Shown: piece by piece, positions 2,646 to 61,648 of the stretch
Layout of the letters: the number at the start of each line of letters is the position of its first letter
Numbering within the stretch: position 1 is the stretch's first letter
NCBI GenBank assembly: GCA_003164215.1
Contig: PLSR01000003.1
Location: forward strand, 28,892 to 92,891
DNA from: Candidatus Kaiserbacteria bacterium
GTDB lineage: Bacteria; Patescibacteriota; Minisyncoccia; Phycocordibacterales; UBA2100
Reading direction: 5' to 3'
Length of the DNA stretch: 64,000 nucleotides
Translations under genes and position numbers: made by a program
Notes under the pieces: generated by a model
Told to the model about the DNA's origin: nothing
The model's database searches: none
Seen by the model: only the letters and a program-made list of their open reading frames with translations

Positions 2646-3670
2646 CGTTGTTCGTTCAATGCCAAGTAATGACCGTGAGAATAAAACCTGAGCGAAGACC
2701 CTGCGTGTCTACGCTTTATATTCTGTTTTGTAGCGAAGCGCAAATTTGAGAATACCACGGCGTTCAGAAAGACGGGGTGCGACCAGCCGGTCAATGTTTG
2801 CGGCAGCAGGTGGATATCGCTTCGCAACCCGTCATAATTGAGGGAATATCTCCCCAGTACGGACATGATCTCCATAAGTTTGATCACCCCATCGTTGTCG
2901 AGGTGGTGTAAGAAAAGCATTGTCATCACCACAGTAAAATCTCGCGGTTGAAATTCCCGAGAAAGATCGAAAATATCATTTTGACATTGCACGATCAAAA
3001 CGGGGGTCTTGTGTTCTCTCTCAAGCCTAAGCAGGACATCTCTGCTAACGACATTCTCGCGCACGATCGTAACGCGAGGATCATGAGTCTCGTTGAACGT
3101 CTGCGCGACCAGTGTGTGGGCTAATTCAGATGTGTCGATGGTCATGATGGTGACGTTGCGCACCTGATCCCCGGAAAGGAGCGTGGTGACGAATTGTCGC
3201 TCGGCCTCAGCGGCACCGCTACCGAGCGATGCGATTCGAATGCGGCTATCTTTTGAAATTTGCACAAGACGCAGAAGGCATTCTACGACCGGTCGCGCGA
3301 TACCTGGAAAAGGTCGACGTTCGACCTCGGACAATTTGGCATGCATGATGTGGTCAAGGTCAGGCAGTATCTCATTGATCTCAAGAAGGTCATCCGGTTT
3401 GATCGAGTGGGAATGGATAAGCCATTTCACATATGAAGGCACCGTTCGTATCGCCTCAAAAAAACGCAGATTCTGCTCAATCGCGTACGCATTAGTCAGC
3501 GGATGATCGTCACGTTTCAGACCTTTCAATTGAGACAAAATATAAGTGATCTGCGCTGAACGATCCTCGGGCACTGTTCCAGTGCTCGGCGTTCGCTCTG
3601 CGGTGCTCATATTGTCCGTTTCGTTACTGCTCATAGGTAATGTGTGGAGCTCGTCGCTTTGTTCGCGCAC
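2642..3670 (-). CDS. hypothetical protein with Rossmann-like GxGxxA motif (possible NAD/SAM-binding enzyme)
   Basis: 342 aa ORF; IASLGSGAAEAE motif; 4-nt overlap with the upstream kinase gene; true start may be an internal Met near 3610-3634. Confidence 0.4.
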   Translation of the reverse strand: MREQSDELHTLPMSSNETDNMSTAERTPSTGTVPEDRSAQITYILSQLKGLKRDDHPLTNAYAIEQNLRFFEAIRTVPSYVKWLIHSHSIKPDDLLEINEILPDLDHIMHAKLSEVERRPFPGIARPVVECLLRLVQISKDSRIRIASLGSGAAEAERQFVTTLLSGDQVRNVTIMTIDTSELAHTLVAQTFNETHDPRVTIVRENVVSRDVLLRLEREHKTPVLIVQCQNDIFDLSREFQPRDFTVVMTMLFLHHLDNDGVIKLMEIMSVLGRYSLNYDGLRSDIHLLPQTLTGWSHPVFLNAVVFSNLRFATKQNIKRRHAGSSLRFYSHGHYLALNEQR

Positions 3671-4772
3671 TCGCTGGACGGTGCGGGAGGCCGATGCGCA
3701 AAATCATGACAACGCCTTTAGACCCGACGGCCTGTTCAATTGACTCTTGCGCCGCAAGGATCCTTTTTCGAAGCTGCGACGCGATATCCGGGTCATTTGT
3801 TCGCCTCACGTATTCCGCAAGATAGAGAAGTCCTGCAAGTGGTTGAGCGGCGAGACCTTCGGCAGTCGTGGTAAGCCACGCACGTTCCATGCACCTGCCT
3901 GCGTTTATAAAATCCTCTTGCGTGGTTCCGGTGAGTATGACCGCTATACAGGCTCCAGTTCTCGCGTATAAGGCGGAATTACCCAATGCCGCGCCTCGCG
4001 CGAAGCCGATACGATTGAGTGTCGCCGTCACGGGCCAGAAATTCAACGCCCGAAAAAGAAGTTGCACCGGGGGCGGTAATTCCATCGTCTTAATATACAT
4101 GCCTGCCTCACCATTCTCGTTCTTATTCTCATCCCAAAAAATACTATCGAAAAAAGATCGGTGAAGTTTCTTTGTTCGCAATGCGGCCTCTTCCATGAGC
4201 ACAGACGAATGAGCGATGGTCTCAATTGCGTGGCGATCAGTGACAAGTAGCGCCCGAGCATCGCCCTCATGAATATCGCGAAGATGCTCAAAGAAAGACG
4301 GCTGAATGATCTGATGATATGGATTGCGATTCGTGTGACGCTTTTCGATCGTGTGAAATAAAGGATGCCCCGAACGATCACGCTCGTCAAAATGTACACG
4401 TGCGACGGCGTCGTCCTCTCCGTGAGAAAGATCAATAGCGGTATCGAGCCCGTCTTCCTGTGCGGCGATCGAGATATTTTCCACGAGCGCTCCGATCGCG
4501 ATCATCGTGCCGCGAGCCTCAATATTGAGGATCGGGTTATCGAGCTCGGGAAGCGCGTAAACATAGACCGTGTCACCCTTGACGGCAAAACGCCACGGTT
4601 GCGTATTATCGCCGGAAGGCGCCTTGGTACCGTGATGAAGAATTCGCTCGAGACGACTGCGGTCGATCATACGTATGATCTCATGGAAGTCCGATCGCGC
4701 GACGGAATTCGGCACGACGAGCATCTCGCTCAGTTTTTCCATCTGCATACGTCGGGTCGAAGATCGAGTCAA
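3624..4772 (-). CDS. nitroreductase-family (SagB/McbC-like dehydrogenase-type) protein, probably tandem NTR fold
   Basis: 382 aa; APSGDNTQPWRF matches the nitroreductase FMN-site signature; about twice the single-domain NTR length; overlaps neighbouring genes. Confidence 0.7.
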   Translation of the reverse strand: MTRSSTRRMQMEKLSEMLVVPNSVARSDFHEIIRMIDRSRLERILHHGTKAPSGDNTQPWRFAVKGDTVYVYALPELDNPILNIEARGTMIAIGALVENISIAAQEDGLDTAIDLSHGEDDAVARVHFDERDRSGHPLFHTIEKRHTNRNPYHQIIQPSFFEHLRDIHEGDARALLVTDRHAIETIAHSSVLMEEAALRTKKLHRSFFDSIFWDENKNENGEAGMYIKTMELPPPVQLLFRALNFWPVTATLNRIGFARGAALGNSALYARTGACIAVILTGTTQEDFINAGRCMERAWLTTTAEGLAAQPLAGLLYLAEYVRRTNDPDIASQLRKRILAAQESIEQAVGSKGVVMILRIGLPHRPASARTKRRAPHITYEQ

Positions 4773-5796
4773 GGCTTATTTCCACCTTCTGCTGAGTCAG
4801 CGGTTGCTTGAGCGCGATCCGCCTCAATGCGTAGGCGATGGCAACACCGGAAAGCGTCGCGGCGTCACCCAGTTGTGGCCAGGAGTAGATCGTCTTCCCC
4901 ACCTGTAACAACGACTCTGTCATGCGTATGGTGACGAGGTCAGGACCCGCGATCTTCGTCGCCAATCGAGGCAATTCCTGCGGCGGGAACGATCTGAATT
5001 CTTCGATCGTGATGTCCCCTATCGCGCCGTTGAAAAGCTGAGCATTGCGATCGAGATCGAACCGATCTGCTTCAAAAATGATGTTGTCGCCATTATCAGT
5101 TGCCATGATGACCGGAATACCGCGCTTACGCGCCTCGAATCGAAGGCGTATTTTCATCTCAAGGTTGTCTGTTTCTTCGACCAGGACGTCGATATCGGAC
5201 AGAAATGCATCCATGTTCGCTTCCGAAACTCCATCAGGAAATGACTCCACATCGGCATACGGATTGAGCTGGTAGAGATATTCGCTCGTTAGATCAGTTT
5301 TCTTCTTACCGACATCAAGAAAATCGAAGCGTATGCGGTTCAGATTAGAGGGCGACACTGTATCCGGGTCCGCGATCTTCACGTGACGGCCGCCACCCAT
5401 GAGCGCAAAGGTCGCGACGCCGTGACTGCCTACTGATAGACCAGCGTATGCGACTCGCAAGCCGTAGAGCGCGGCTTGCTCGTCCTTCTTGATGATCTCT
5501 CTATTGCGCGCGGTGCGTATCTCAAGATGCTCTGATTCTGTGAGATAGTGGGCGCATGTTCGATTCCAAGGAAAGTAGAACCATTCGCCGCATTCCGACA
5601 GCGATTTACCGACAGCGTATTCTCTCGTGAATTGTTCAAGTTCAGAAACGTGATCTTTGATGAATTTGAAACGCGGATTCCGTATGAGGAAAAGATCCTC
5701 AAGGAGCAGTTCGTACTGATCGATGATATTTGCCGGCTTCAATCGCCCGACGAACGATCCATATGTCTCAGTGCTTCGGTCAAGTCGTTCAGGCAT
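4681..5796 (-). CDS. ThiF/MoeB/E1-like adenylyltransferase with ~110-aa N-terminal extension
   Basis: 371 aa; nucleotide-binding loop YAGLSVGSHGV..GGG and DPDTVSPSNLNR typical of the E1/ThiF fold. Confidence 0.75.
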   Translation of the reverse strand: MPERLDRSTETYGSFVGRLKPANIIDQYELLLEDLFLIRNPRFKFIKDHVSELEQFTREYAVGKSLSECGEWFYFPWNRTCAHYLTESEHLEIRTARNREIIKKDEQAALYGLRVAYAGLSVGSHGVATFALMGGGRHVKIADPDTVSPSNLNRIRFDFLDVGKKKTDLTSEYLYQLNPYADVESFPDGVSEANMDAFLSDIDVLVEETDNLEMKIRLRFEARKRGIPVIMATDNGDNIIFEADRFDLDRNAQLFNGAIGDITIEEFRSFPPQELPRLATKIAGPDLVTIRMTESLLQVGKTIYSWPQLGDAATLSGVAIAYALRRIALKQPLTQQKVEISLDSIFDPTYADGKTERDARRAEFRRAIGLP

Positions 5797-5819
5797 GCTG
5801 AAATGATATCACGCCATTT

Positions 5820-7316
5820 TCAATTTTGTTTGAGTACCCACCGCTGCTTGATATCTCGCCTGAAATACGCCGGGTCTTCATAGGGCCAGTACACAATTTT
5901 GGGGACGGATCGGGCACCGAGAAAGTTGCACAGTTCACGAAACTCTGAATTCTTCTCTTTGAGATTCTTTATGATCTCGGCGAGCAATAACGCTGAGAAC
6001 TCGGGGCTGGCCTCTCTCCCCTGACGTAACTCGACGTTGATCTCAAGATATTGGTCGTGCGAGTCATCAAAACGCGTAGCAAGTGTCAAGCGGCCCGACA
6101 GGAACGGGGCGAATGATTCTCCGAGCAGGACCTCTTTGACGGTCTCCGGATAGACTTGTAATCCGTACAAAGTCGCCGAGAGATCACTACGCTCATACAC
6201 ATAGACGAACGGCAACAATCGAAGATCATCTGGGATCTTTGCGGCCTTCATTTCCTTCAAAAGATCGACACCGTGATCCGCCATGATCCGTTCAATTTCA
6301 GCGAATGTATACACGCCGCCATTGTCGCCGATCGCATACCGCATAAGCGGCATGGCGCTATCCGCCGAGAGTAGCAATTGCCCTTCGTGTTGTTCGAATG
6401 CAGTGTAGGCGGGAATGTTCTGCGCGAGTGTCGGCGTTTTGCTGATATCGCCGAACAAGGTCTTAAAAATTTCAGGTTTTTGTATCGCGATCTGACGAAC
6501 ACGAATAGAGAGCGGTGTCTCGAACGCCATCGTTCCCACGTCCGCGCTCCCGTATACATTCATTGTATCGGTCAGCGGGTTCTTTATGTTCGCCTTTTTC
6601 ACGACGTAATCTCGAAATTGCTCGGTGAATGCTTCTGCCGCGAAAAGAATTGCCACTTTGTGATTCTTTAAGGAAATACCTGCCTCGGCCGCACCGTCGA
6701 GGACATCTTTGATGAACGGCGGATACCCGGTAAGAATGATCTGTTTGTAGCTGGGAGCAAGTTTTCGAAGTATTTTCAGTATTTCGGTGCGGTTGATGCC
6801 CGGAGTAATGATGGATATCGGATGCCCGCGTTTTGACATAAGCTCGAAGGCTTGGTATGTCAACAGGCCGCCGATCCAGATCCCCATGCCGAAGCATATG
6901 ATGACAAGCGTAGATTCCGTTTTCGAGAGCGAAGTCTGAAGAAAAAAGCGCTCATGGATCAGCGCAGATTGTTCGTCGATGGTCGGTGACCGTCCGAAGA
7001 AGAACGGTTCCCCGGTCGAGCCGGATGTTGAAGTAAGCACATGTGGCGTCGCCAGTGAGCCGCCCCAAAAAAGATCTGCATATTTTGCAGGGCGTAGATA
7101 GTTGTCCTTTGAGGTAAGTGGTATGCGCAACAGATCGTGGTCTGTCTTGATATCCGCAGCTCGAGTCCCTGCATTTTTCAGGAATTTCTTATATGCCGGC
7201 ACTTCTGCCGCCATTTTGTGGAACAATCGCACGAGCGTAGAATCGGCCCGTGGAGATTCTGGGCTACGAACCTTCTTCGTACTCTTTTTCAGCCGTGGGC
7301 GAACCGATTGTTGCAT
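5820..7316 (-). CDS. adenylate-forming enzyme, PaaK/CapK/F390-synthetase-like (ANL superfamily)
   Basis: 498 aa; P-loop-like TSTSGSTGEPFFF (A3 motif) and YGSAD (A5-like) motifs. Confidence 0.6.
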   Translation of the reverse strand: MQQSVRPRLKKSTKKVRSPESPRADSTLVRLFHKMAAEVPAYKKFLKNAGTRAADIKTDHDLLRIPLTSKDNYLRPAKYADLFWGGSLATPHVLTSTSGSTGEPFFFGRSPTIDEQSALIHERFFLQTSLSKTESTLVIICFGMGIWIGGLLTYQAFELMSKRGHPISIITPGINRTEILKILRKLAPSYKQIILTGYPPFIKDVLDGAAEAGISLKNHKVAILFAAEAFTEQFRDYVVKKANIKNPLTDTMNVYGSADVGTMAFETPLSIRVRQIAIQKPEIFKTLFGDISKTPTLAQNIPAYTAFEQHEGQLLLSADSAMPLMRYAIGDNGGVYTFAEIERIMADHGVDLLKEMKAAKIPDDLRLLPFVYVYERSDLSATLYGLQVYPETVKEVLLGESFAPFLSGRLTLATRFDDSHDQYLEINVELRQGREASPEFSALLLAEIIKNLKEKNSEFRELCNFLGARSVPKIVYWPYEDPAYFRRDIKQRWVLKQN

Positions 7317-7340: not shown

Positions 7341-8384
7341 TTACGATCGTTGAACAAGGTCACGCAGGTGCTTCAAAACGATGCCCTGATGCTTGGGAGA
7401 TGGGACCGCCATCCGTATGGTATTACTCAGCAGCGTTCTGGCGGGGTCATACGCGGACATCCATGATCCTTCGGATACGTGAATTTTCCGCTTATGTAGC
7501 AAGCTCGAAAGAGAAACGGCATCCGGAACCCGAAACAAAATGAAATTCGTGGCAGAAGGATAAGCGGTGACGCCGGATATGGTACGGAGCTCGGTCAATA
7601 TATCGTCGCGCATGTCTGCAATAAGTCTGCGGCGTGCCACGAATTCTTTTGCTCGCACAAGTAAAGCCTGTGCGATGACGACGCTGGGATGTGCTACCGG
7701 CCATGGCAGGAGCGCGCGCGTTATGAGAGGGGTAATGTCCGGCGACGACATACAGTAGCCAATTCGTGCTCCCGCAAGCCCGAAGGATTTCGAAAGTGTG
7801 CGAAGAATAACGATCGATTGCGAATCGAGCCGTTCGATCGAGGTTTCTCCACCGAATTCAAAATAGGCTTCATCAACGACGGCAAGTATGCCATACTTTT
7901 GCGCCGCATCGAGCACTTTCTTGAGGTCCTCATGCGGAATAGAAGATCCAAGTGGATTATTTGGTGTACAAAGAAATATACATCCCACGCGACTCGCGGC
8001 GATGGCTTCAAGTACGTCGGCTGTTGGAAAAATAAAAGCTCCATCGACCTCATGGTAATAAAACGGAATGACAGTGGCGCCTTTTTGTTCAGCAATTCGC
8101 TCGTATCCGTAAAATGTGGGTACCGGAAGACCGATGGGCAGACCCGTGTGTTCGCAGTATTCGGTCAAGATAGAGATCGCCGCATCTGAGCCGGCAGTGA
8201 CGTTCACACGTTCCCGATCGACACCCGCATAACGGGCCAATGCGTCCAATAATGCGTCGTATGATGGATAGGTAGACAGTGTCTGCGCTTTCAACAATTC
8301 CGCCAAGCCACCTATGATCGCGTCATCCAGCAACCAATAACTTTCGTTATGTGCCAAAGGAATTATACCCGTACTGCCGTTCAT
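7341..8384 (-). CDS. class I/II PLP-dependent aminotransferase, histidinol-phosphate/aromatic aminotransferase-like
   Basis: 347 aa; PLP-lysine motif LSKSFGLAGARIGY; NPLG motif. Confidence 0.8.
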   Translation of the reverse strand: MNGSTGIIPLAHNESYWLLDDAIIGGLAELLKAQTLSTYPSYDALLDALARYAGVDRERVNVTAGSDAAISILTEYCEHTGLPIGLPVPTFYGYERIAEQKGATVIPFYYHEVDGAFIFPTADVLEAIAASRVGCIFLCTPNNPLGSSIPHEDLKKVLDAAQKYGILAVVDEAYFEFGGETSIERLDSQSIVILRTLSKSFGLAGARIGYCMSSPDITPLITRALLPWPVAHPSVVIAQALLVRAKEFVARRRLIADMRDDILTELRTISGVTAYPSATNFILFRVPDAVSLSSLLHKRKIHVSEGSWMSAYDPARTLLSNTIRMAVPSPKHQGIVLKHLRDLVQRS

Positions 8385-8400
8385 AGTCTTTGAACTCTCA

Positions 8401-8898
8401 TCAGCTTCGAACGAACGCGAGGATGATAAACACCCCTAGGAACCACAGAAGTGCATAGGGTAAGCCGAAAATCGCATGGATCTGATTGCCAGGATTCCAT
8501 AGTGCGACGAGAGCCGGTATCTGCAACCACATGACTATGAGCGCGATAGTTCCACTTATACCGGCGAGGAAGGAATTCATCAGTCCGCCCGATGACCCCC
8601 CGAACGTTGCCGTCATGCGGTTCGTGAGAAGAAATACTGCGATAAAGATCACGACCAAAATACCTGCCATGACATATGTCGATGCCAAAAATGGAGCGAT
8701 CACACTTTCCAATAGGAATGTATGCGGAATGAGACTAAAAAGAAATAGTGATACGGGTGACGTGATTGCGATTATAGAAGCATGTGCCGCACCCGAGCGC
8801 ATCGCATCTATGGTGAGCAGAAGGACAAGTAGAACGAAGACGATCCAGCCGAACGGGATGTGAGTGAGCCAGGTGGGAAAAAGAGCAGAAAGATTCAT
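8401..8898 (-). CDS. hypothetical integral membrane protein (about 5 TM)
   Basis: 165 aa, strongly hydrophobic; start overlaps the dnaJ stop by 4 nt, implying co-transcription. Confidence 0.5.
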   Translation of the reverse strand: MNLSALFPTWLTHIPFGWIVFVLLVLLLTIDAMRSGAAHASIIAITSPVSLFLFSLIPHTFLLESVIAPFLASTYVMAGILVVIFIAVFLLTNRMTATFGGSSGGLMNSFLAGISGTIALIVMWLQIPALVALWNPGNQIHAIFGLPYALLWFLGVFIILAFVRS

Positions 8899-8901
8899 AG
8901 A

Positions 8902-9999
8902 TCAAAGTCCTTCTGCACGCAACTTATCAATAAGGTCTCGCGCAGAGCGGGAAAGTTTCTTCGGAAATTCGATGTCGACGCGAATGATGAGATCGCCACG
9001 GCCGCCGCGAGCGGTTGGGACACCTTTTCCGCGGATCCTGATAGTCTCGCCATGCACAATACCGGCAGGTACCGTGACGACTTCTTCACCATCAAGCGTC
9101 GAGATGCGATACTCGCCGCCGAGAAGTGCATCGGTGAGCTTGATCGGAAGTGCCGTGAGCAAATTATTGCCGTCACGCGAGAATGATGCGTCGGTCTTCA
9201 CGTGCAATTTTACATAAAGATCCCCCGCGCTGCCGCCCTTGGCCGCTTCACCGCGACCCGGCATACGGATCATCTCACCATCTTGGACTCCTCCGGGGAC
9301 AGTAACGTGGATCTCCTCCTGACGCTTCGTCACGCCCGCTCCACGGCAGGTCTCGCATGGTGTCTCCGGGATCTCACCGCGGCCGCTGCAGGTCGGGCAC
9401 AAGCGTGCTGACGTGAAGTTCCCGAAGAAGGTGTTGCGGGTCTCACGAATATCACCCTTGCCGTTGCAGGTCTTGCAGGTGATCATTTTCGAACCCTTCT
9501 TGGCTCCAGTACCGCTGCACACGTCGCAGACCGCCATCTTCGAGATGAGCACCCGGCGATCTGTGCCGAAAATACTCTCTTTAAATGAAAGCTCGATATC
9601 GATGGAAATGTCGCGCCCTCGCTGTTGACCGCGCCCACCGCCACCATTGCCCCCGAAAATATCACCGAAAATATCACCGAGGTCGAATTCGACATTCTGC
9701 CCATTGAAACCCTGGAATCCTTGCTGGAAATTTGAGAAATCGAACCCACCGAATCCTGCGCCGGATGCCGCACCGTTGCCTCCCGCAAATGTCTTGCCGT
9801 ACGTATCGTATTCCGCCCGCTTCTTTTTATCTGAAAGCACGGAATACGCCTCGCTCAGCTCTTTGAATTTGGCCTCATCGCCGCCCTTTTTGTCGGGATG
9901 ATGTTTCTGCGCGAGTTTGCGGAAAGCTTTTTTTATATCGTCTTCAGTCGCGGATTTCGAAAGCCCAAGAATATCGTAGTAATTCTTCATAGAGGTCAT
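8902..9999 (-). CDS. dnaJ: molecular chaperone DnaJ
   Basis: J-domain with HPD motif, G/F-rich region, four CxxCxGxG zinc-finger repeats. Confidence 0.9.
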
Positions 10000-13879: not shown

Positions 13880-14854
13880 TTATTGTGAGCGAAGAGTAAG
13901 ACCGAGGTTGGAAAGTGCGCGTTTGATGTCCTGCAGGCCCTTTTGGCCCAACCCTTCGATCGCCAAAAGATCATCTTCGCGCTTGCGAACAAGACCGCCA
14001 ACGGTACGAATGGATGCATTGTCGAGCGCCATTTCAACGCGCTGCGGCATGCCGAGTTCGGTGATGCGGGTCTTCAATATCTCGGCGTCCATCGGAGCCG
14101 ATTTATCCTCGCGGGCAGGTGCGCGCAGATCGGAGATCATCGCCGATGATTCCGTCTCCTCCTCTTCCTTGAAACCGACGACCGCTTTGAGCTGATGGAT
14201 CATCGTCTCGATCGAGCGCTCGAGCGCCTCGCGCGGTGCGAGCGTGCCATCGGTCTCGATCATGATGCGTAAGCGATTGAAGTTGGTGCGGTCACCGACA
14301 CGCATGTTCTCAACTTCATAATTAGCGCGGCGGATCGGAGAGAAGATCGCGTCGATCGCGATGGTGCCGATGTCGACACGCTCTTTCTGATGCTCTTCCT
14401 TCGGAATGTAGCCCAAGCCTTGTTCCGCACGGAGCTCAAGCTCGAAATTGACCTTGGAGGTCACATCGGCGATCGGCTGCTCTGGATTGAGGATCTCAAC
14501 CTGGCCCGGGAGCTTAAGATCGGCGGCCGTGACAAGCTTCGGTCCTTTGACGGAGAGCGTTATGGTCTGCGGCTCGTCAGACAAAAGCTTAAAGCGGATC
14601 TTGCGGACATTGAGGAGGATCGTTACGACGTCCTCCTTTACGCCCTCGATCGTTGAGAATTCATGCGGCACGCCGGGGATCTTCACATGCGTGATCGCTG
14701 CACCCGGCAGGGACGAAAGAATGATGCGACGCAATGAATTGCCAAGCGTATTGCCGTAACCCGGATAGAGACCGTCTATTTCGTAGATACCGCTCCGTTC
14801 CGACTCGGAGACGACGCGCGGCTTGCTCGGCAATGCAATGTGGTAGTCCGACAT
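13880..14854 (-). CDS. rpoA: DNA-directed RNA polymerase subunit alpha
   Basis: 324 aa; conserved alpha N-terminal domain and C-terminal domain (ELGMPQRVEMAL...IRTVGGL). Confidence 0.9.
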   Translation of the reverse strand: MSDYHIALPSKPRVVSESERSGIYEIDGLYPGYGNTLGNSLRRIILSSLPGAAITHVKIPGVPHEFSTIEGVKEDVVTILLNVRKIRFKLLSDEPQTITLSVKGPKLVTAADLKLPGQVEILNPEQPIADVTSKVNFELELRAEQGLGYIPKEEHQKERVDIGTIAIDAIFSPIRRANYEVENMRVGDRTNFNRLRIMIETDGTLAPREALERSIETMIHQLKAVVGFKEEEETESSAMISDLRAPAREDKSAPMDAEILKTRITELGMPQRVEMALDNASIRTVGGLVRKREDDLLAIEGLGQKGLQDIKRALSNLGLTLRSQ

Positions 14855-39774: not shown

Positions 39775-40908
39775 CTAATCAGATGTTGAGGTAGATGAAG
39801 ATGTGCTCGCGTCTTGATATGCACCGGTCGATGTCGAGTTGTCCGAAATATCGATAGTCGGTATCGTAATACGCGCTCCAAAATCCGCCTGAGCCTGCGC
39901 CGCGATCTGCACCGCGCGCGTGCCGCGAGTCATTGCCTGAAATGCCTGGAATGCTTGTTTGAGATCTCCATGCGCCAGACTTGTTTTGCCCGCATCCATC
40001 GCCTGCTGAGTCGACGAGGCATCGATCGCCACTTGACCGGTATCCGACGCACTCGATGATGCAGATCCAATGAGATCACTGGCATCATTTAATTGCGATG
40101 CGGCAGCCTGCATCTGACTGTTTATTGCACTACCGATCGATGAGGTCGCATTCGCATTAAGCGCAGAAAATGCGGCGATTCGAGCAATGCGTGCCGAAGC
40201 CGCCTGTGCGCGCACAGCAGCCACAAGTGGCGCGATCACACTTTGAACAGTCGGACTGGTGCTGGCGAGCGCGTCGAGCACTTGTACATGCGCCGAGAGC
40301 GAAGCTTCAAGATCTGATTGAGCATCGGATGCCTGTGCGATGGCAGCGACTTGTGTCGGACTACTGGTGGCTGCCACTGTCGAAGTCGCAGCCGGCGCCG
40401 TTGTCGCGGTCGCCACACTTGCATTGAGGTTCTGCGTCACATCAGCGAGCTGTGTTTGAACTATTTGTACATTGGTCGCGGTCAAGGCGCCTGTAGCCGC
40501 AAGTTTTTCCGCTTCCTCGAGGCGTCTGTTCGCCAAGGTGACGTCCCATTGCGCCTGGGTTTCTCCGGAAGCTGTAAGTACCCGCTCGACCGGCTCGGCC
40601 ACGTTCACTTTGATGCCATACAGCGGATCGCCCGGCAATGAATTTTCCGCCGCATAGGTCGTGCCCGCCCCCGCGACCAATACGATCACGAGCGACATCG
40701 CGACGAGTCGATACCCTGTAAATGCGTGTCGTGATGAAGCCATATCCAGGACGTGCGAACTATATGAAAATGCACGTACCAAAAATGGCGCCCGCGCAGG
40801 GTGTTCATCGATGAATACTGCAAGATCGAGCCGCATTTCGGTGCGTTCTCGACCTGTAAGCGATATTGATCGATGTTTTTTTGCGAGTTTCCTTAAAAAT
40901 TCTTCCAT
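39775..40908 (-). CDS. DUF5667-like membrane-anchored Ala/Ser/Thr-rich protein (possible anti-sigma factor)
   Basis: 377 aa; TM anchor then PGDPLYGIKV motif and a long low-complexity Ala/Ser/Thr/Gln helical region; ECF sigma factor gene nearby. Confidence 0.5.
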   Translation of the reverse strand: MEEFLRKLAKKHRSISLTGRERTEMRLDLAVFIDEHPARAPFLVRAFSYSSHVLDMASSRHAFTGYRLVAMSLVIVLVAGAGTTYAAENSLPGDPLYGIKVNVAEPVERVLTASGETQAQWDVTLANRRLEEAEKLAATGALTATNVQIVQTQLADVTQNLNASVATATTAPAATSTVAATSSPTQVAAIAQASDAQSDLEASLSAHVQVLDALASTSPTVQSVIAPLVAAVRAQAASARIARIAAFSALNANATSSIGSAINSQMQAAASQLNDASDLIGSASSSASDTGQVAIDASSTQQAMDAGKTSLAHGDLKQAFQAFQAMTRGTRAVQIAAQAQADFGARITIPTIDISDNSTSTGAYQDASTSSSTSTSD

Positions 40909-41100
40909 GATGTTCCGTAATACGGTGTCCGTAGAACAGGTTGCACGCTCACGATTATATCCCTTGTCCTCTATTTATGTCATCCATCATGCGCGCGCGA
41001 CACCTCCACATCATTTCGACGTATGAGAACCTCACTTCTTACTGCAAAAGCCCCGGCAGATCGCTCTGTCGGGGCTTTGCGTGTACGGTTGGTTATGGAA

Positions 41101-41457
41101 TTACCAACTGCGGCCGCCGCCGCCGTTGCTACCACCGCGACTACCGCCGCCGTATCCGCCGCGATCATTGCTGCCGCCACGGTATCCGCCGCTGGTCTTC
41201 GGCCGTTCCTCCATCGGGCGCGCCTCATTTACCGTGAGGGTGCGTCCGCCGAAGTCCTTCCCGTTCCACATATCGATCGCGCTCTGCGCTTCCGAATCGG
41301 AAGACATTTCGACGAAGCCGAAACCCTTCGAGCGACCGCTCATCTTGTCCATGATGATGACGGATGACTCGACGGCACCGGCTTGCGCGAATGCGTCCTT
41401 GAGCTGATCGTCGGTCGTGCTGTAGGGCAGCCCGCCGACATAAAGCTTCTTTGCCAT
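41101..41457 (-). CDS. RRM-type RNA-binding protein with Gly/Arg-rich tail
   Basis: 118 aa; RNP2 (LYVGGL) and RNP1 (KGFGFVEM) motifs; GGYRGG/GGYGGG repeats. Confidence 0.8.
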   Translation of the reverse strand: MAKKLYVGGLPYSTTDDQLKDAFAQAGAVESSVIIMDKMSGRSKGFGFVEMSSDSEAQSAIDMWNGKDFGGRTLTVNEARPMEERPKTSGGYRGGSNDRGGYGGGSRGGSNGGGGRSW

Positions 41458-41570
41458 GTGTAATTTCTCAGTACGTATCTGTTTCCTCTAAAAATGTAAA
41501 CCAACCATTTCCTTGCCTTCGCTTTGGAAAAATTACATTCACCGCAACATTAACCTATCCATGGCAACAG

Positions 41571-42119
41571 TCAAGGCCTTTTTGGCGGACTGTTGAAAAG
41601 TATCTTCAATCGCTCTATACCGCGATGTATTCGCACCGAGACGACGTTCTCCGATACCCCAAGCACGCGCGCGATCTCACTCGGCGACATTTCGTCGATA
41701 TAACGCAGGGTAATGACGACACGATACATCTCATCGAGAGATTCGAGTAATTTCAGTGCTTCGCGCACGCCCTGTATTTCCGCCGGATCGGTGATCGATT
41801 CGTCAACAACTTCATATCCGTTTTCCTCCACCATCACATCGAGGGACGATGTGTGTTTTCGTCTTGCGGTATCGACGATTAGATTATTGGCGACGCGGAA
41901 AAGGAATGCCTTGATATGCTCGATCTTTTTCCTATCCGACAGATAGACCCAGGTGCGCGAGAATGCCTCCTGTACGATGTCTTTCGCCCGTTCGCGGTCT
42001 CGCACGCGCAAGAGCACATGCCGGAAAAGTGCGTCCGCATGCGCCTCGTAGGCAGCCAAGAATTCTCGCTCAAGCGCTTCGGCCCATTCTTTTTGGGTAT
42101 CTTTTCTTTTTGACGCCAT
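41571..42119 (-). CDS. ECF-family RNA polymerase sigma factor
   Basis: 182 aa; region 2 and region 4 (PSEIARVLGVSENVVSVRIHRGIERLK). Confidence 0.8.
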   Translation of the reverse strand: MASKRKDTQKEWAEALEREFLAAYEAHADALFRHVLLRVRDRERAKDIVQEAFSRTWVYLSDRKKIEHIKAFLFRVANNLIVDTARRKHTSSLDVMVEENGYEVVDESITDPAEIQGVREALKLLESLDEMYRVVITLRYIDEMSPSEIARVLGVSENVVSVRIHRGIERLKILFNSPPKRP

Positions 42120-42199: not shown

Positions 42200-43054
42200 C
42201 TACGGCAAAAACGGTGAAATGGAAAGCATGATCGAAAAAATAAGAAGCGTGATAAGCGACAGAAAAAAGACTTGTCGTGCCCATTTTGAATCATCGACCA
42301 CCGTGAATCCGCGGAAACCATATATGAGCCACCATATGCTTGCCGCTCCGACCACGAGCAGAAATACATAGCCGGTATGTGCAACGATCGCGAGCGAGGC
42401 AACGGAGAGCAAAAAGAGGACGATATATATGACAATATTCATTTTTGTGATCTTCAGACCTTTTTCGATCGGTAGTACCGGGATTTTGGCCGCGCGATAG
42501 TCAGCCAAGCGGTTCAGCGCGATCGCATAAAAATGCGGCATCTGCCATACGACGAGTATCAGAAAGAGAAGAAGTCCGGTCGCATCGACACGGTCGGTGA
42601 ACGCCGTATAACCGACAAGTATCGGCACAGCTCCCGAAACACTTCCGACCAATGTTCCCCAATGACCCGCGCGTTTGGTATATGAGTACAGGATGACGTA
42701 AAAAATGAATCCGACGCCGGCGATACATGCCGCAAGAACGTTCACCTCAAAGATCATGAGGCAAAATCCGATGATCCCAAGACACGTCGCGTAAACGAGA
42801 GCGGCGCGATTTGAAATACTTCCGACGACGAGCGCACGACCTCTCGTCCGTTCCATCTTGCCGTCGATAACTCGATCGATGTAATTATTGAACACACATG
42901 CCGATGCGATGACGAGCGCGAGCCCCATTACCGTCATCACGAGCAAAAGCGGATCAATATGCCACCGCGATGCAAAGAGGAACGCCGCGAGCGTCGTAAT
43001 GATATTCCCGTAGACAATTCCCGGCTTGGCGAGATCATAGAAGCGTTTGAACAT
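42200..43054 (-). CDS. cyoE: protoheme IX farnesyltransferase (heme O synthase)
   Basis: 284 aa; UbiA-family motifs (NNYIDRVIDGKMERT); 9 TM. Confidence 0.85.
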   Translation of the reverse strand: MFKRFYDLAKPGIVYGNIITTLAAFLFASRWHIDPLLLVMTVMGLALVIASACVFNNYIDRVIDGKMERTRGRALVVGSISNRAALVYATCLGIIGFCLMIFEVNVLAACIAGVGFIFYVILYSYTKRAGHWGTLVGSVSGAVPILVGYTAFTDRVDATGLLLFLILVVWQMPHFYAIALNRLADYRAAKIPVLPIEKGLKITKMNIVIYIVLFLLSVASLAIVAHTGYVFLLVVGAASIWWLIYGFRGFTVVDDSKWARQVFFLSLITLLIFSIMLSISPFLP

Positions 43055-43062
43055 AATGGCGG

Positions 43063-43458
43063 TTATATCCCCTGTTGATCCTGCATATATTGTTCCATCT
43101 GCGACGGGTCAGCCATCATGCGTTCATTGAGGTGCGTCATGATCCACAGAGATCCGACGACCAGAATGAGAACGATCACGAGAATGGCACCGAGCGCGAT
43201 AAGACGTTCACGCGAGGCAGAAGCCGAGTCAAGATGCAAGAAGCACATGATCTGCACGATGAATTGCACGCCTGCGAGTGATAGCAGAACGACAATGAGC
43301 GGCGAAGCCTGCAACAGGCGATCCACTGCGGTCACATATGCTACGAGTGTGATTATGAGCGAAAGCACGAACCCGATCACATACGAACGCGCGAGTGTAC
43401 GGAAATCTCTCGGCCAAGCGCCGATCTCTTCGAAATAATGTTTGATGTGGTCGGTCAT
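43063..43458 (-). CDS. cyoD: cytochrome o ubiquinol oxidase subunit IV
   Basis: 131 aa; 3 TM; position and size match CyoD. Confidence 0.7.
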   Translation of the reverse strand: MTDHIKHYFEEIGAWPRDFRTLARSYVIGFVLSLIITLVAYVTAVDRLLQASPLIVVLLSLAGVQFIVQIMCFLHLDSASASRERLIALGAILVIVLILVVGSLWIMTHLNERMMADPSQMEQYMQDQQGI

Positions 43459-43462
43459 ATTT

Positions 43463-44086
43463 TTAATTGATCCCCATCATATAGACAATCGTGAAAATGA
43501 ATATCCAAACGATGTCGAGAAAATGCCAGAACAGGCTCATGAGCATCAGCTTGCGAAGATTGCCACGAGTCAGTCCACGCATCACGATCGAAGTCGTTAG
43601 TACGATCATCCAGACGACGCCGAGCGCTACATGCAGCCCGTGCGTGCCGACAAGCGTGAAATACGATGAAAGGAATCCGCTCGTCTGCCATCCAACGCCG
43701 CCCGCGACGAGCCGTCCGAATTCGGAAAGTTCCATGGCAACGAACGATGCGCCCAAAAGTGCAGTTACACCGAGCCAAAACACGACGAATCGCTTGCTAT
43801 TTTTGTGAGCTGAAAGTAGCGCAAGCCCGCAGGTGAAGCTGCTCGACAAAAGCAAGATCGTTTCAGTGAGGATATATGGCGCGTTGAAGATGTCTTTCCC
43901 TGCAGGTCCGCCGAATGTGTTGCCGCGCAAAACTGCATAGACCGCAAAGAGGCTCGCGAAGAGCACGAAGTCCGTCATCAGGAACATCCAGAAGCCGAAG
44001 ACTGTCGTATTATCGGCGGCACGAGATTCGATAGGAAGCTTCTCGTTCCCTATGGTCAATGATTCATGTGCTATAGAGCTTTTCAT
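43463..44086 (-). CDS. cyoC: cytochrome o ubiquinol oxidase subunit III
   Basis: 207 aa; 5 TM; conserved GTHGLHV motif. Confidence 0.8.
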
Positions 44087-46068
44087 ATAGTTGCGTGGCG
44101 ACTATGATGTGCCGCTTCATGGACGCGTATGTGTTCCGCCGAGATGATCTCTTCAGTATCGTCGTCAAACATGCGCAACAGCATCGAAACAAATTCGCCG
44201 ATGAGTCCAAGGATCGCGAGCCACCAGATGTGCCACACGATCCCGAAGCCAATGAGGAAAACGAATCCCGCTATGAAAATTCCGATCGCCGAATTTCTCG
44301 GCATGACGATATCTTCGTAACGATGCGCGGCAACGGTCCCCGATTGTTTCGCAGTCCAGAACGCATCACGTCCGTGTACGACTGGCAGCACGGCGAAGTT
44401 ATATGCGGGCGGCGGCGAAGAGGTCGACCATTCAAGCGATCTGCCGCCCCACGGATCTCCCGTCGTATCGCGATTCTTGTGCCGATTCTTGATGCTTACG
44501 TACATCTGGATCACTTGGCATATAAGTCCGAGACCAATGATCGCGGCTCCGATCCCTGCGACGATGAACAAGGGCTGCCATCCGAGATTTGCAGCGTAGT
44601 GATCGAGGCGGCGCGTCGCACCCATGAATCCGAGAATATACAGTGGGCCGAAGGCAAGAATGAAACCGACAAGCCATGCCCAAAATGCACGTTTGCCCCA
44701 GCGTTCATCGAGTGTGAATCCGAATATCTTTGGGAACCAAAAAGTGAAACCCGCGAAGTAGCCGAAAAGGACGCCGCTCACGATCATCGTATGGAAATGC
44801 GCGACGAGAAAGAGGCTGTTGTGCAGTTGGAAATCCGCCGCAGGCTCGGCGAGCAACACTCCCGCTACACCACCCAAAGTGAAGAGGACGACGAAGCCCA
44901 TGAACCAGAGCATCGGCGACGTGAATCGAATGCGTCCGCGATACATCGTGAAGAGCCAGTTGAATATCTTCACACCCGTCGGTATCGCGATCACTGCCGT
45001 CATTATGCCGAAGAACGCGTTCACGTCGCCGCCCGCGCCCATGGTGAAGAAGTGATGCAGCCACACGGTGAACGAAAGGAACACGATCGCGATGACCGAG
45101 AGCACCATCGAGGTATAGCCGGCAAGTTTCTTTCCCGAGAATACCGGAACGACTTCGGAGAATATCCCGAATGCCGGCAAGATCAAGATATAAACTTCCG
45201 GATGACCCCACGCCCAGATGAGGTTCACGTACATCATCATGTTGCCTCCACCGCCCGCAGTGAAGAAGTGCATACCGAGTGTGCGATCGAGCGCAAGCAA
45301 CGCCAAAGTCGCGGTCAAGATCGGAAATGCGAATACGACGAGCGACATCGCCCCGAGGACCGTCCAGCTGAACATCGGCATGCGCATAAAGGTCATGCCG
45401 GACGCGCGATTCTTGACGATCGTGACAAGAAAATTGATGCCACTAAGCAGACTTCCGAGCCCGCCGATCTGCAGGCTCCATATCCAATAATCGACGCCCG
45501 AGGTCGGGCTGAACGCGAGCTCGGAAAGCGGCGGATACGAGAGCCAGCCCGCCGTCGAGAAATCACCCACGATGAGCGAGAGATTGATGAGCGCGGCGCC
45601 AGCGACGAAGAGCCAGAAACTCACTGAATTCAAGAAGGGGAACGCGACGTCGCGCGAGCCGATCTGCAACGGCACGACGAGATTGATAAGGCCGAACATG
45701 AGCCCCATCGCGACGAAGAAGATCATGATGGAACCGTGCGCCGAGAAGATCTGTTGGAAATGGCTCGCGCTTAATATTCCCTGTGATGCGCCGACGGATG
45801 TCGCCTGTTGTGCACGCATCAGGAATGCATCTGCACTGCCGCGCACGAGCATGACGACCGATACCGCGATGTACATCACGCCGATCTTCTTGGGGTCGAG
45901 CGAGGTGAACCAATGCTTCCACAGGTAACCCCATTTTTTGTAGTAGGTAATAAGGAAAATTATGGCAAAGCCGACGAGCACCATGAATATGCCTCCGCCC
46001 ATAGCTATCGGGCTTTGCGGAAAGACCGACCACGAGAGCTTGCCAAATATGAATTCAGTCCAGTTCAT
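44083..46068 (-). CDS. cyoB: cytochrome o ubiquinol oxidase subunit I (heme-copper oxidase catalytic subunit)
   Basis: start set at [12 protein letters not shown] (ATGA overlap with the cyoA stop); [17 protein letters not shown] and heme/CuB His ligands. Confidence 0.9.
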
Positions 46069-47045
46069 TGCATTGGTGCGTCGCCCATTGGCATATTCAT
46101 GCCGTTCATATCGTTTGAAGATGCCGACGTCGGTGCCAGCGTCGCAGCCATATCCGCCGCTGACATATATTTCATGGTGATCGCAGTATACAGGCTCGCA
46201 TCTATTGGCGCATAGATCGCAACGGCGTTGTACGTGCTCGGCGCAACGAGAGACGCGTATACGGCATTTGTGAGCGGCGTTGATGATGCCTTTACGCCGT
46301 TGATCCATGATTCAAAATCACTCTCTGAAACCGCGTGCACAGCAAATGTCATCCCTGCGAATCCCGCTCCACTGATGTTTCCCGAGACGCCGTTGAATAC
46401 GCCCGCATTGCTTGCGAGCAGATTAAGCTGGGTCGTCATGCCCGGCATGACCATGATCTGGCCGCCCAAGGCCGGTATCCAAAACGAATTCATCGGCGCG
46501 TCGGCGGTCAATTCAAAATGGACCGGACTGTTCACCGGGATCTCAAGATAATTGACCGTTGCGATACCCTCCTCCGGATAAATGAAAAGCCATTTCCAAT
46601 CGAGCGCGACGACTTGGATCGTCATCGGTGCATTCGATCCCTTAAGCGGCACATACGGATCAAGCGCATGCGCGCTCTGCCACGCGACGACGGCCAATAC
46701 CGCAATGATCGCCGTCGGTGCGAGCCACCACGAAAATTCGAGCCATGCGCTCGAGTGATCCCATTCGGGGCGATGATGTTTGGCGGTCTCCGGATTGGAT
46801 GCGCGATATTTCCAGGCGAACCAAAAGAGAAGCACGAAGACCGGCACGACGATGATCGCGCACAAGAGCAACGTGATATACATCACTGACAGTTCCCCAC
46901 TGGCGACCGGCCCCTGCGGCTCAAGCACCGGAATATTCGCTCCGTGCAAATACGCGACCGTCGCCCACACCGCCGCGACAAGAGCCAGCACCACTGCCAC
47001 GATGAATGATCGGTTCATCATTGTGGGATTAAGTGTAGCATCCAA
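46065..47045 (-). CDS. cyoA: ubiquinol oxidase subunit II (no CuA cysteines)
   Basis: 326 aa; two N-terminal TM then cupredoxin fold lacking the CuA Cys/His motif, which indicates the quinol-oxidase type. Confidence 0.8.
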
Positions 47046-47411
47046 CTAATCATCATCCCCCACATTATTATCTTCCCTATTACCCGATTCAACATGCGAC
47101 CTGACAATCGAAGATAATTCTGCCCATTCGTTTTCTGAAAGCAACCGCCTCGGAAACATTATGAATTGCCGATCTGAAACGTAGAGAAGAAGCACTTTGT
47201 TATCTTGCACAAAACGCACATACGCTTTCCAATAAGCCTCGCCAGTACCTATTTCTGGAGTGTCTGTATGAACACCCATTTCTGTGATCTCGAAATTATG
47301 CTGAACTCGCAGACTAGGGGCCCTTTGGAAGGCGTTCTTGGTTTTAAAACGCAAATAAATATATGGGAACGTCAAAAGATAACCGCTGACAATGAGTTCT
47401 AAAATCCCCAT
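47046..47411 (-). CDS. hypothetical protein
   Basis: 121 aa; an in-frame hydrophobic segment lies upstream of the called Met but has no canonical start codon. Confidence 0.35.
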   Translation of the reverse strand: MGILELIVSGYLLTFPYIYLRFKTKNAFQRAPSLRVQHNFEITEMGVHTDTPEIGTGEAYWKAYVRFVQDNKVLLLYVSDRQFIMFPRRLLSENEWAELSSIVRSHVESGNREDNNVGDDD

Positions 47412-57819: not shown

Positions 57820-60325
<2,506 letters not shown>

Positions 60326-60373
60326 GACGTGAAATATAGCACCTGCCTTCGCCCAAGGCTACGGGCGGACGGG

Positions 60374-60406
60374 TAAAAAAGAGACCGCCATGTCGCCACG
60401 GCGGCC
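60374..60406 (-). terminator. intrinsic terminator/attenuator hairpin 50 nt upstream of tyrS and 127 nt downstream of cfa
   Basis: minus-strand GGCCGCC-GUGGCGACAU-GGCGGUC followed by UCUCUUUUUU. Confidence 0.45.
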
Positions 60407-60532
60407 TGAGTCTAGGGAGGAAACGCCCAAGGAGGGCATATGCGGCAGGTCATGCCACACCTCCTTCACCGTAGCAGTTCATCCAAATTTGTCTATGTGC
60501 GAGAGGTGTGGATAACATAAACCCCCATCGTG

Positions 60533-61648
60533 CTAACGAACTGCTGTATACCGCTCTCGCGCTCCTACCTTGGTGAATACGATCTGCCATAGTTGTAGAT
60601 TGCGGACTCGGAAGGAAGCTGCGCTTGACAGCAGATAATATTTCCACATGCGATAGAAACGATCGTCGTAACTGCTTTTGACAGAATCCCAATTCGTATC
60701 GAAGTTGGAGAACCAAGCCATAAGGGTCGTGTCATAATCCGGACCGAAGTTGTGCCAATCTTCCATAGAGAAAAGATCACCCGCCGCACGTCCAATCTGT
60801 TCGATCGATGGAACGAGCCCGTTGGGGAAAATGTATTTTTCGATCCAGGGGTCGGTGCCATAGGTCGACTTATTACCGCCGATCGTATGTAAAAGAAAAT
60901 ACCCGTCTCTTTTCAAGAGCGCATGTACCTTCTCCATATAGGAACGGTAATTCTTATAGCCAACATGTTCGAACATGCCGATCGAGATCACATGGTCATA
61001 CGCGCCTTCGTGCTCGTGATAATCCTGGAGAAGCGTCTCGATCGGTAAACCTCTCCGGTGTTCGTCGGCATACGCCTTCTGTGCGCGCGACACGGTGAGC
61101 CCTGTGCCGGATGCATCATACCGCTCTGCGGCGAACCGCAAGAAACTTCCCCATCCGGATCCGATATCGAGAATGTGCTGCCCCTTTTCCAATCCGATCT
61201 TTCTACACACTAAGTCGAGCTTCGCTTCCTGTGCCTCGTCAAGTGTCGTCGCGTTATTCCAATAGCCGCACGAGTAGACGAGCCGCTCGCCGAGCATTGC
61301 CGCATAGAGATCGTTGCCGATGTCATAGTGACGCTCACCGACCTCGAACGCGTGTCGTTTCTGCAGATTGATGATCCGTGCACGTAGATAGTGCCAGATG
61401 ACGGCGGGATTGATCCCGACCTTTTGTTCCAGATTACCGCTCAAGATCTTTGCGATAAGTTCATCGACGCGCTCCGCATCCCACCAGCCATCCATGTACG
61501 ACTCACCGAAACCCAGGGTCCCGCTTGCAAGCACCCGATCATAAAAGCGCGCATCGTGGACCTGAATATCCCACGTTCGATTACCGTTCACTTCAATGCC
61601 CGCCTTCGCGAAGGCGTCTCTGAATATTCGCTCCGTTTTTGCGGTCAC
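60533..61648 (-). CDS. cfa: cyclopropane-fatty-acyl-phospholipid synthase
   Basis: 371 aa; SAM-binding motif ILDIGSGWG and CFA-synthase C-terminal region. Confidence 0.8.
   Translation of the reverse strand: MTAKTERIFRDAFAKAGIEVNGNRTWDIQVHDARFYDRVLASGTLGFGESYMDGWWDAERVDELIAKILSGNLEQKVGINPAVIWHYLRARIINLQKRHAFEVGERHYDIGNDLYAAMLGERLVYSCGYWNNATTLDEAQEAKLDLVCRKIGLEKGQHILDIGSGWGSFLRFAAERYDASGTGLTVSRAQKAYADEHRRGLPIETLLQDYHEHEGAYDHVISIGMFEHVGYKNYRSYMEKVHALLKRDGYFLLHTIGGNKSTYGTDPWIEKYIFPNGLVPSIEQIGRAAGDLFSMEDWHNFGPDYDTTLMAWFSNFDTNWDSVKSSYDDRFYRMWKYYLLSSAASFRVRNLQLWQIVFTKVGARERYTAVR

Follow-up and report, generated by a model that had tools for sequence, protein, structure and literature searches.

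We report that the five-gene operon cyoABCDE, carried on a 64-kb window of contig PLSR01000003.1 (the window being the whole 64,000-nucleotide stretch of Candidatus Kaiserbacteria DNA analyzed here), very probably encodes a functional bo3 quinol:O2 oxidoreductase plus CyoE in a Kaiserbacteria-like Parcubacterium, an enzyme that would have been acquired anciently, retained under purifying selection, and supplied with scavenged cofactors for the removal of oxygen. As classified from its genes, the complex is an A1-type heme-copper quinol:O2 oxidoreductase, CyoABCD, accompanied by a heme O synthase of its own. The operon consists of five uninterrupted open reading frames (ORFs) in series on the minus strand, encoding CyoA, CyoB, CyoC, and CyoD as well as CyoE between positions 42200 and 47021 (47045 with a TTG start).

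46065 to 47021, minus strand: cyoA, quinol oxidase subunit II; 318 amino acids from the ATG at 47021; Pfam COX2 and COX_ARM; NCBIfam TIGR01433.
44083 to 46068, minus strand: cyoB, subunit I, the catalytic heme-copper subunit; 661 amino acids; Pfam COX1; TIGR02843.
43463 to 44086, minus strand: cyoC, subunit III; 207 amino acids; Pfam COX3; TIGR02842.
43063 to 43458, minus strand: cyoD, subunit IV; 131 amino acids; Pfam COX4_pro; TIGR02847.
42200 to 43054, minus strand: cyoE, heme O synthase (protoheme IX farnesyltransferase); 284 amino acids; Pfam UbiA; NF003348 and TIGR01473.

Each of the five ORFs is intact and carries both a Pfam and an NCBIfam assignment, which upholds the claim of a complete cyoABCDE operon made earlier from the nucleotide letters alone (here called the sequence-only reading). 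The gene order, heme O synthase included, is that of a bo3-type oxidase. The same reading had all of the genes joined by 4-nucleotide overlaps, and this is true of the cyoA/cyoB and cyoB/cyoC junctions, both of which are ATGA overlaps, and not of cyoC/cyoD or cyoD/cyoE, which are separated by gaps of 4 and 8 nucleotides, respectively. The gene calls of the public assembly start cyoA at the ATG at 47021; the TTG at 47045, where the sequence-only reading ended the operon, lies eight codons upstream of that ATG and abuts the stop codon of the preceding gene. Scans for a promoter and a terminator at the operon boundaries gave results no better than those from shuffled sequence.

We conclude from the genes that the enzyme is a quinol oxidase and not a cytochrome c oxidase, because subunit II lacks a CuA site, the quinol-binding (QH) site of subunit I is conserved, and the scores with the CyoA and CyoB models far exceed those with the Cox models; the sequence-only reading had called the enzyme correctly. 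Cyo-specific equivalog models of NCBIfam rank first for every subunit, and models for aa3 quinol oxidases and cytochrome c oxidases score far below them, with CyoB reaching only 795 bits with QoxB and 552 bits with CtaD. The curated cutoffs are passed by CyoC (243 bits with TIGR02842; cutoff, 223.75), by CyoD (85.8 bits with TIGR02847; cutoff, 81.45), and by CyoE, both as a heme o synthase (345.2 bits with NF003348; cutoff, 285) and with TIGR01473 (267.9 bits; cutoff, 210.3). When CyoA was compared with bovine COX2, in a copy whose 227 residues all agree with PDB 1occ_B, the CuA ligands read H161N, C196S, C200S, and H204F in bovine numbering, and only M207 was kept. Thus, the reported absence of CuA ligands is borne out for four of the five side-chain ligands, which are replaced by the same N/S/S/F residues as in CyoA of Escherichia coli, and a similar loss is seen in the cyoA genes of 16 loci from the candidate phyla radiation (CPR). 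Moreover, CyoA aligns with residues 15 to 310 of E. coli CyoA (1fft_B; E=2.6e-68) and shares its C-terminal COX_ARM domain.

Two solved quinol oxidases frame the comparison. The bo3 oxidase of E. coli, CyoABCD plus CyoE (PDB 1FFT, 6WTI, 7CUB, and 8F68), has the gene order of the window, and its CyoB aligns with the window protein over residues 1 to 650 at 60% identity (E=3e-263), with all metal ligands, Y288, the D and K channels, and the QH-site residues R71, D75, H98, and Q101 in common. It differs in that the window CyoA is without the lipoprotein cysteine, F93 is replaced by isoleucine, and no sign of quinone or heme synthesis was seen in the region examined. The aa3-600 menaquinol oxidase QoxABCD of Bacillus subtilis (PDB 6KOB), likewise a CuA-less A-type heme-copper quinol oxidase, is the next-best solved-structure match to the window CyoB (E=4.7e-209). 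It is set apart by the model scores (795 bits for QoxB versus 1018 for CyoB) and by a glutamate in QoxB at the equivalent of Q101, where the window has glutamine. With regard to the missing cysteine, the N terminus of the window CyoA (46950 to 47021) reads LHGAN where E. coli has LLSGC, with no lipobox cysteine, and subunit II of the window is probably not lipid modified.

The catalytic subunit is intact. Twenty-four functional positions of CyoB, in E. coli numbering, were compared between the window and its 120 best relatives, drawn from more than 120 clusters at 70 to 92% identity. The heme b ligands H106 and H421, the heme o3 ligand H419, the CuB ligands H284, H333, and H334, and the cross-linked Y288 are present in the window and in all 120 relatives, and E286 (in the GHPEV motif), N124, N142, T211, K362, T359, S299, R481, R482, and W280 are likewise invariant. 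D135 is present in the window and in 118 relatives, such that the D channel (D135, N124, N142, and E286) and the K channel (K362, T359, and S299) are entirely kept in the window and in 118 to 120 of the relatives. Every ligand, channel, and propionate residue checked is found in the window, and each is invariant in at least 118 of 120 relatives. Variation among the 24 positions is confined to D407 (kept in 108/120) and to Q101 and F93 of the QH site. At that site the window has R, D, H, and Q at positions 71, 75, 98, and 101; R71 and D75 are kept in 120/120 relatives and H98 in 119/120, position 101 (Q106 in window numbering) is glutamine in 62 relatives and glutamate in 58, and position 93 is isoleucine in the window and isoleucine or valine throughout the subclade.

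Selection on the cyo genes, as estimated from codon substitutions, is clearly purifying. Approximate ratios of nonsynonymous to synonymous substitution (dN/dS) against L087, a relative with a 92%-identical CyoB, are 0.064 for cyoB, 0.079 for cyoC, 0.093 for cyoD, and 0.102 for cyoE, and there are no frameshifts or internal stops in the five genes. Because the functional residues are kept and dN/dS lies at 0.06 to 0.10, we take the operon to encode a working enzyme and not a relic.

The host is a member of the CPR, as judged from the labels carried by relatives of its RpoA and alanyl-tRNA synthetase. The 90%-identity cluster of RpoA holds HVM73867.1 from "Candidatus Paceibacterota bacterium," and all named entries among the top 120 listed matches of the synthetase belong to Paceibacterota, Kaiserbacteria, the Parcubacteria group, or the Patescibacteria group, at 73 to 78% identity. 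Paceibacterota is placed by NCBI taxonomy in the phylum Minisyncoccota, i.e., within the CPR, and the CPR-like host proposed by the sequence-only reading is thereby supported. The gene content of the window is almost all housekeeping, together with many ORFs that match no family: tryptophanyl-, tyrosyl-, and alanyl-tRNA synthetases; DnaK, DnaJ, and GrpE; ribosomal proteins S9, L13, S4, S11, and S13; RpoA; and DnaB, RecR, UvrABC, MurB, Ddl, TGT, and MnmA.

How the operon came to be in such a host is best approached through CyoB. A bootstrapped neighbor-joining tree (95 sequences, 200 replicates) takes in the window, E. coli, 12 labeled Paceibacterota proteins, and 80 named genome loci, and B. 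subtilis QoxB serves as the outgroup. All CPR CyoB proteins of the tree fall in one clade (191/200), the window CyoB falls in a Paceibacterota subclade (198/200), and when rooted on QoxB, the CPR-containing clade is nested among proteobacterial CyoB proteins. The tree fits an old lateral acquisition. The five cyo genes have GC contents of 50 to 56%, compared to 52.9 ± 3.2% for 50 other genes of the window; cyoB alone among them is slightly high in GC content at third codon positions (0.70 versus 0.59 ± 0.06). Pooled synonymous codon usage of the cyo genes correlates with that of the remaining window genes (r=0.960), and random gene sets of the same size give 0.948 ± 0.028. With no compositional signature in GC or codon usage, recent transfer was rejected. 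The sequence-only reading had suggested lateral acquisition and had named a CyoB phylogeny and a comparison of GC and codon usage with flanking genes as the checks to make: the first fits acquisition, with the CPR clade nested among Proteobacteria, and the second finds that the cyo genes match their neighbors, which, with the low dN/dS, makes the transfer an old one and not a recent import. CyoB identity, moreover, decays with rank much as alanyl-tRNA synthetase identity does. These sequences are most simply read as a single ancient acquisition, from a donor resembling a proteobacterium, after which the operon would have descended largely vertically, a reading in line with Beam et al. 2020 (PMC7507113).

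Strict CPR monophyly of CyoB was rejected, as the clade also holds two Chlamydiae (Parachlamydiaceae and Simkaniaceae), one "Bacteroidetes" metagenome-assembled genome (MAG), and four unlabeled MAGs. These seven members without a CPR label are loci L018, L039, L038, L015, L029, L033, and L059, and five of the seven have lysine for arginine at QH-site position 71. Their placement could reflect either transfers among host-associated lineages or mislabeled bins.

How the enzyme would work in its host can be proposed from these data. A proteobacterium-like donor would long ago have passed the operon to an ancestor of a large CPR clade, where strong purifying selection would have kept it since. Membrane quinol would bind the CyoB site R71/D75/H98/Q101, and electrons would pass by way of the low-spin heme to the heme-CuB center, where O2 would be reduced to water as protons are pumped. 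CyoE would farnesylate imported protoheme to give heme O. There are no ubi, men, hem, NADH dehydrogenase, ATP synthase, or tricarboxylic acid cycle genes in the window plus 10 kb of its left flank (approximately 74 kb of a contig of 170 to 198 kb), and because no genes for quinone or heme synthesis were seen there, quinone and heme would most likely be scavenged, together with lipids, from a host or the environment. The sequence-only reading had stated that organisms of this type usually lack respiratory chains and quinone biosynthesis and had proposed a search for quinone and heme genes; the approximately 74 kb of contig examined, a part of the whole genome, has no quinone or heme genes and no respiratory genes besides the oxidase. 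In soil and other oxic habitats the cell may benefit from removal of O2 and gain some proton motive force as well, and full conservation of the pumping machinery mildly favors at least some energy conservation. What the genes themselves indicate is limited to a capacity for making heme O (cyoE) and the presence of a quinol site; the heme actually bound and the use of ubiquinol or menaquinol are predicted at most.

Several points weigh against this reading. CyoA and CyoB score just under the curated cutoffs of their models (263.3 bits versus 266.2 with TIGR01433, and 1018.3 bits versus 1020.35 with TIGR02843). The dS values of the L087 comparison, 0.67 to 1.03, are near saturation, which is why the dN/dS ratios are approximate. 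The tree is a neighbor-joining tree on a sample biased toward close matches, and the sister group that it recovers, Legionella/Neisseriaceae/Coxiellaceae, is unsupported (61/200); the naming of a proteobacterial donor was dropped on account of that value. Finally, the respiratory chain as seen is incomplete, because the approximately 74 kb contain no electron donor (type II NADH dehydrogenase [NDH-2] or other quinone reductase), no ATP synthase, and no quinone source.

The last point bears on whether the oxidase might be part of a minimal but real aerobic chain that conserves energy, with genes for a dehydrogenase of the NDH-2 type and for an F-type ATPase lying in another part of the genome. 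Such a chain would account for the full retention of the proton channel residues D135, N124, N142, E286, K362, and T359, which would be needless for detoxification alone. NADH dehydrogenase and F-type ATPase are, moreover, often present in published cyo-bearing CPR genomes (PMC8407418, PMC6031116, PMC9530719, and PMC13293708), and some relatives have oxidoreductases dependent on flavin adenine dinucleotide (FAD) or flavin mononucleotide (FMN) beside the operon. Neither an NADH dehydrogenase nor an ATP synthase gene occurs in the approximately 74 kb, however, and we regard the minimal chain as possible but somewhat doubtful. That the Kaiserbacteria-like clade respires with energy conservation on host-membrane quinone and heme, with Q or E at position 101 tracking ubiquinone or menaquinone hosts, seems unlikely from the sequences. 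Still less probable is that the complex takes its electrons from a donor other than quinol, whether a protein or a small molecule, in an organism that makes no quinone. Quinone biosynthesis is indeed reported absent in cyo-bearing CPR genomes (PMC4508563 and PMC8407418), Q and E alternate at position 101 in the subclade, and I or V stands in place of F93, but R71 and D75 are invariant, H98 is kept in all but one relative, the Q/E change is conservative with E being found in a menaquinol oxidase, and there is neither a CuA site nor a cytochrome c domain to take electrons from a protein.

Alternatively, the cyo genes might have been acquired recently and be nonfunctional or decaying for want of cofactors that the genome does not supply. 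While the lack of nearby quinone or heme synthesis genes and electron donors is what such decay would predict, the low dN/dS, the reading frames free of frameshifts and internal stops, the catalytic residues invariant across 120 relatives, and the fully ameliorated composition all argue otherwise, and retention of cyoE makes sense only if heme O is actually made. We consider decay very improbable, and we give almost no credence to an assembly or binning artifact in which the operon of a co-occurring proteobacterium was joined to a CPR contig. Chimerism at the level of strains does occur in these assemblies, as an identity switch in L087 near window position 41461 illustrates. Identical CyoB, however, has been assembled independently on five contigs, of which four are 50 to 200 kb long, and because two of the five are shown to have the same neighbors, the placement of the operon is not an accident of assembly. 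The operon lies mid-contig between CPR housekeeping genes in two assemblies from different samples (one contig being 170 kb), its codon usage follows that of its neighbors (r=0.96), and its CyoB sits within a CPR-labeled clade (198/200) at only about 60% identity to proteobacterial CyoB. An old, functional, oxygen-removing quinol oxidase that draws on scavenged cofactors is the reading that we prefer.

The finding is real but already known, in that cyo operons of the CPR, their lateral origin, oxygen scavenging, and cofactor scavenging have been in print since 2013 to 2015. Nelson and Stegen 2015 described a four-subunit bo3 oxidase (CytO) in Parcubacteria C7867-007 and -008, which as in the window lies mid-contig, with matching coverage and composition and with no quinone synthesis or NADH dehydrogenase genes (PMC4508563). 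C7867-007, which is locus L012, has a CyoB only 62% identical to that of the window and falls outside its Paceibacterota subclade. Starr et al. 2018 reported the operon in a soil Saccharibacterium, proposed that quinone and heme are scavenged, and referred to a prior reading of the oxidase as a scavenger of oxygen (PMC6031116). Nicolas et al. 2021 reported that Saccharibacteria, Doudnabacteria, and Parcubacteria from soil have cyoABCDE operons, described as "acquired from other bacteria" (PMC8407418); the cyo genes of these soil lineages have the E. coli gene order, and scavenging of both cofactors has been proposed for them (PMC6031116 and PMC8407418). In our tree, saccharibacterial CyoB stands beside the subclade of the window with weak support (60/200). 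Hypotheses of O2 detoxification and of host-derived quinone are likewise published (PMC4508563, PMC6031116, PMC8407418, PMC7507113, and PMC13293708), and reviews of 2024 and 2026 treat CPR oxidase operons as established (PMC11665869 and PMC13293708). Terminal oxidases of the CPR bear on whether ultra-small, host-dependent cells use oxygen or merely tolerate it and on how they came to colonize oxic habitats, soil among them. What this locus contributes is a well-assembled example, with quantitative support for an old, functional, and widespread operon in the Kaiserbacteria-like Parcubacteria clade.

Position 101 of the QH site varies in its own right. Glutamate there is the residue of the menaquinol-oxidizing QoxB of B. 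subtilis, and glutamine is found in 56 of the 58 sequences of the tree set that lie outside the CPR clade, most of them proteobacterial. The sequence alternation between Q and E possibly is related to quinone type. As a marker of lineage or host it was dropped, the two residues being interleaved by identity rank and mixed within the Paceibacterota subclade.

The operon is flanked on the same strand by the following genes.

47046 to 47411, minus strand: YcxB-like small membrane protein (Pfam YcxB), directly upstream of cyoA, its stop codon abutting the cyoA ORF.
41571 to 42119, minus strand: extracytoplasmic function (ECF)-type sigma factor (Pfam Sigma70_r2/r4_2/ECF), 80 nucleotides downstream of cyoE.
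41101 to 41457, minus strand: glycine-rich RRM RNA-binding protein, downstream of the operon.
39775 to 40908, minus strand: DUF5667 membrane protein, downstream of the operon.

Flanking genes are not conserved among relatives. The YcxB-like gene is kept in same-species contigs L081 and L082, other genes stand in its place in relatives L085 and L086, and it is probably a neighbor outside the oxidase system. The ECF sigma gene occupies the same position in L087, which also shares the RRM protein, and is not found there in L085 or L086; no terminator-like site was detected on the minus strand between cyoE and the sigma gene by a scan that did no better than shuffles. We treat the sigma factor as an adjacent gene only, with no link to the oxidase shown. 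Redox genes adjoin the operon elsewhere. A PRK06185-type FAD-dependent oxidoreductase (592 bits) directly follows cyoE in L085 (13888 to 15108, plus strand). In L086, redox genes lie at 8013 to 8959 and 13973 to 14602, where genes for a PPOX-class FMN/F420 oxidoreductase and for a DoxX protein precede the operon and one for a glutathione S-transferase (glutathione-dependent disulfide oxidoreductase) follows it. Several loci of Starr et al. 2018 and Nicolas et al. 2021 also have an adjacent oxidoreductase, and the L085 enzyme may be the "associated oxidoreductase" of the latter (PMC8407418); the window differs in having none of the oxidoreductase genes seen beside the operon in L085 and L086.

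We note that L087 changes abruptly in its similarity to the window. Identity is approximately 80 to 85% from cyoB to the sigma gene and 100% from the RRM gene onward, the switch lying at window position ~41461 (the compared segment is 40262 to 41461 of the window and ~4880 to 6067 of L087). L087 and L082, the latter a contig identical to the window, derive from one ENA sample, which suggests either a strain-chimeric assembly or very recent recombination between co-occurring strains.

Two other elements of the window lie apart from the oxidase. A cluster on the minus strand at 1032 to 7316 encodes a seven-transmembrane histidine kinase, a 342-amino-acid ORF of unknown function, an FMN-binding (nitroreductase-like) protein of the Acg/Rv3131 family, an adenylyltransferase resembling ThiF/MoeB, and an adenylate-forming ligase resembling PaaK. 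Between them, the FMN-binding and ThiF-like products match both halves of the Rv1355c family, and the cluster may be a system for modifying small molecules or peptides. Finally, the suhB/mmgR family of small RNAs is described from alphaproteobacteria, and one would not expect to meet a full-length member in a CPR genome. The match to this family (RF00519) is strong, at 64.4 bits (gathering score, 41); it occupies 60368 to 60444 on the minus strand, with a CMAS-type methyltransferase gene (60533 to 61648) on one side and tyrS (59072 to 60325) on the other. Its 5' half, a CCUCCUCCC-like motif included, is nearly identical to the family, and a terminator hairpin with a U-run closes the element. 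A 30-mer of the match recurs in the same-species contig L084 (3331 to 3360) and in no other locus compared.

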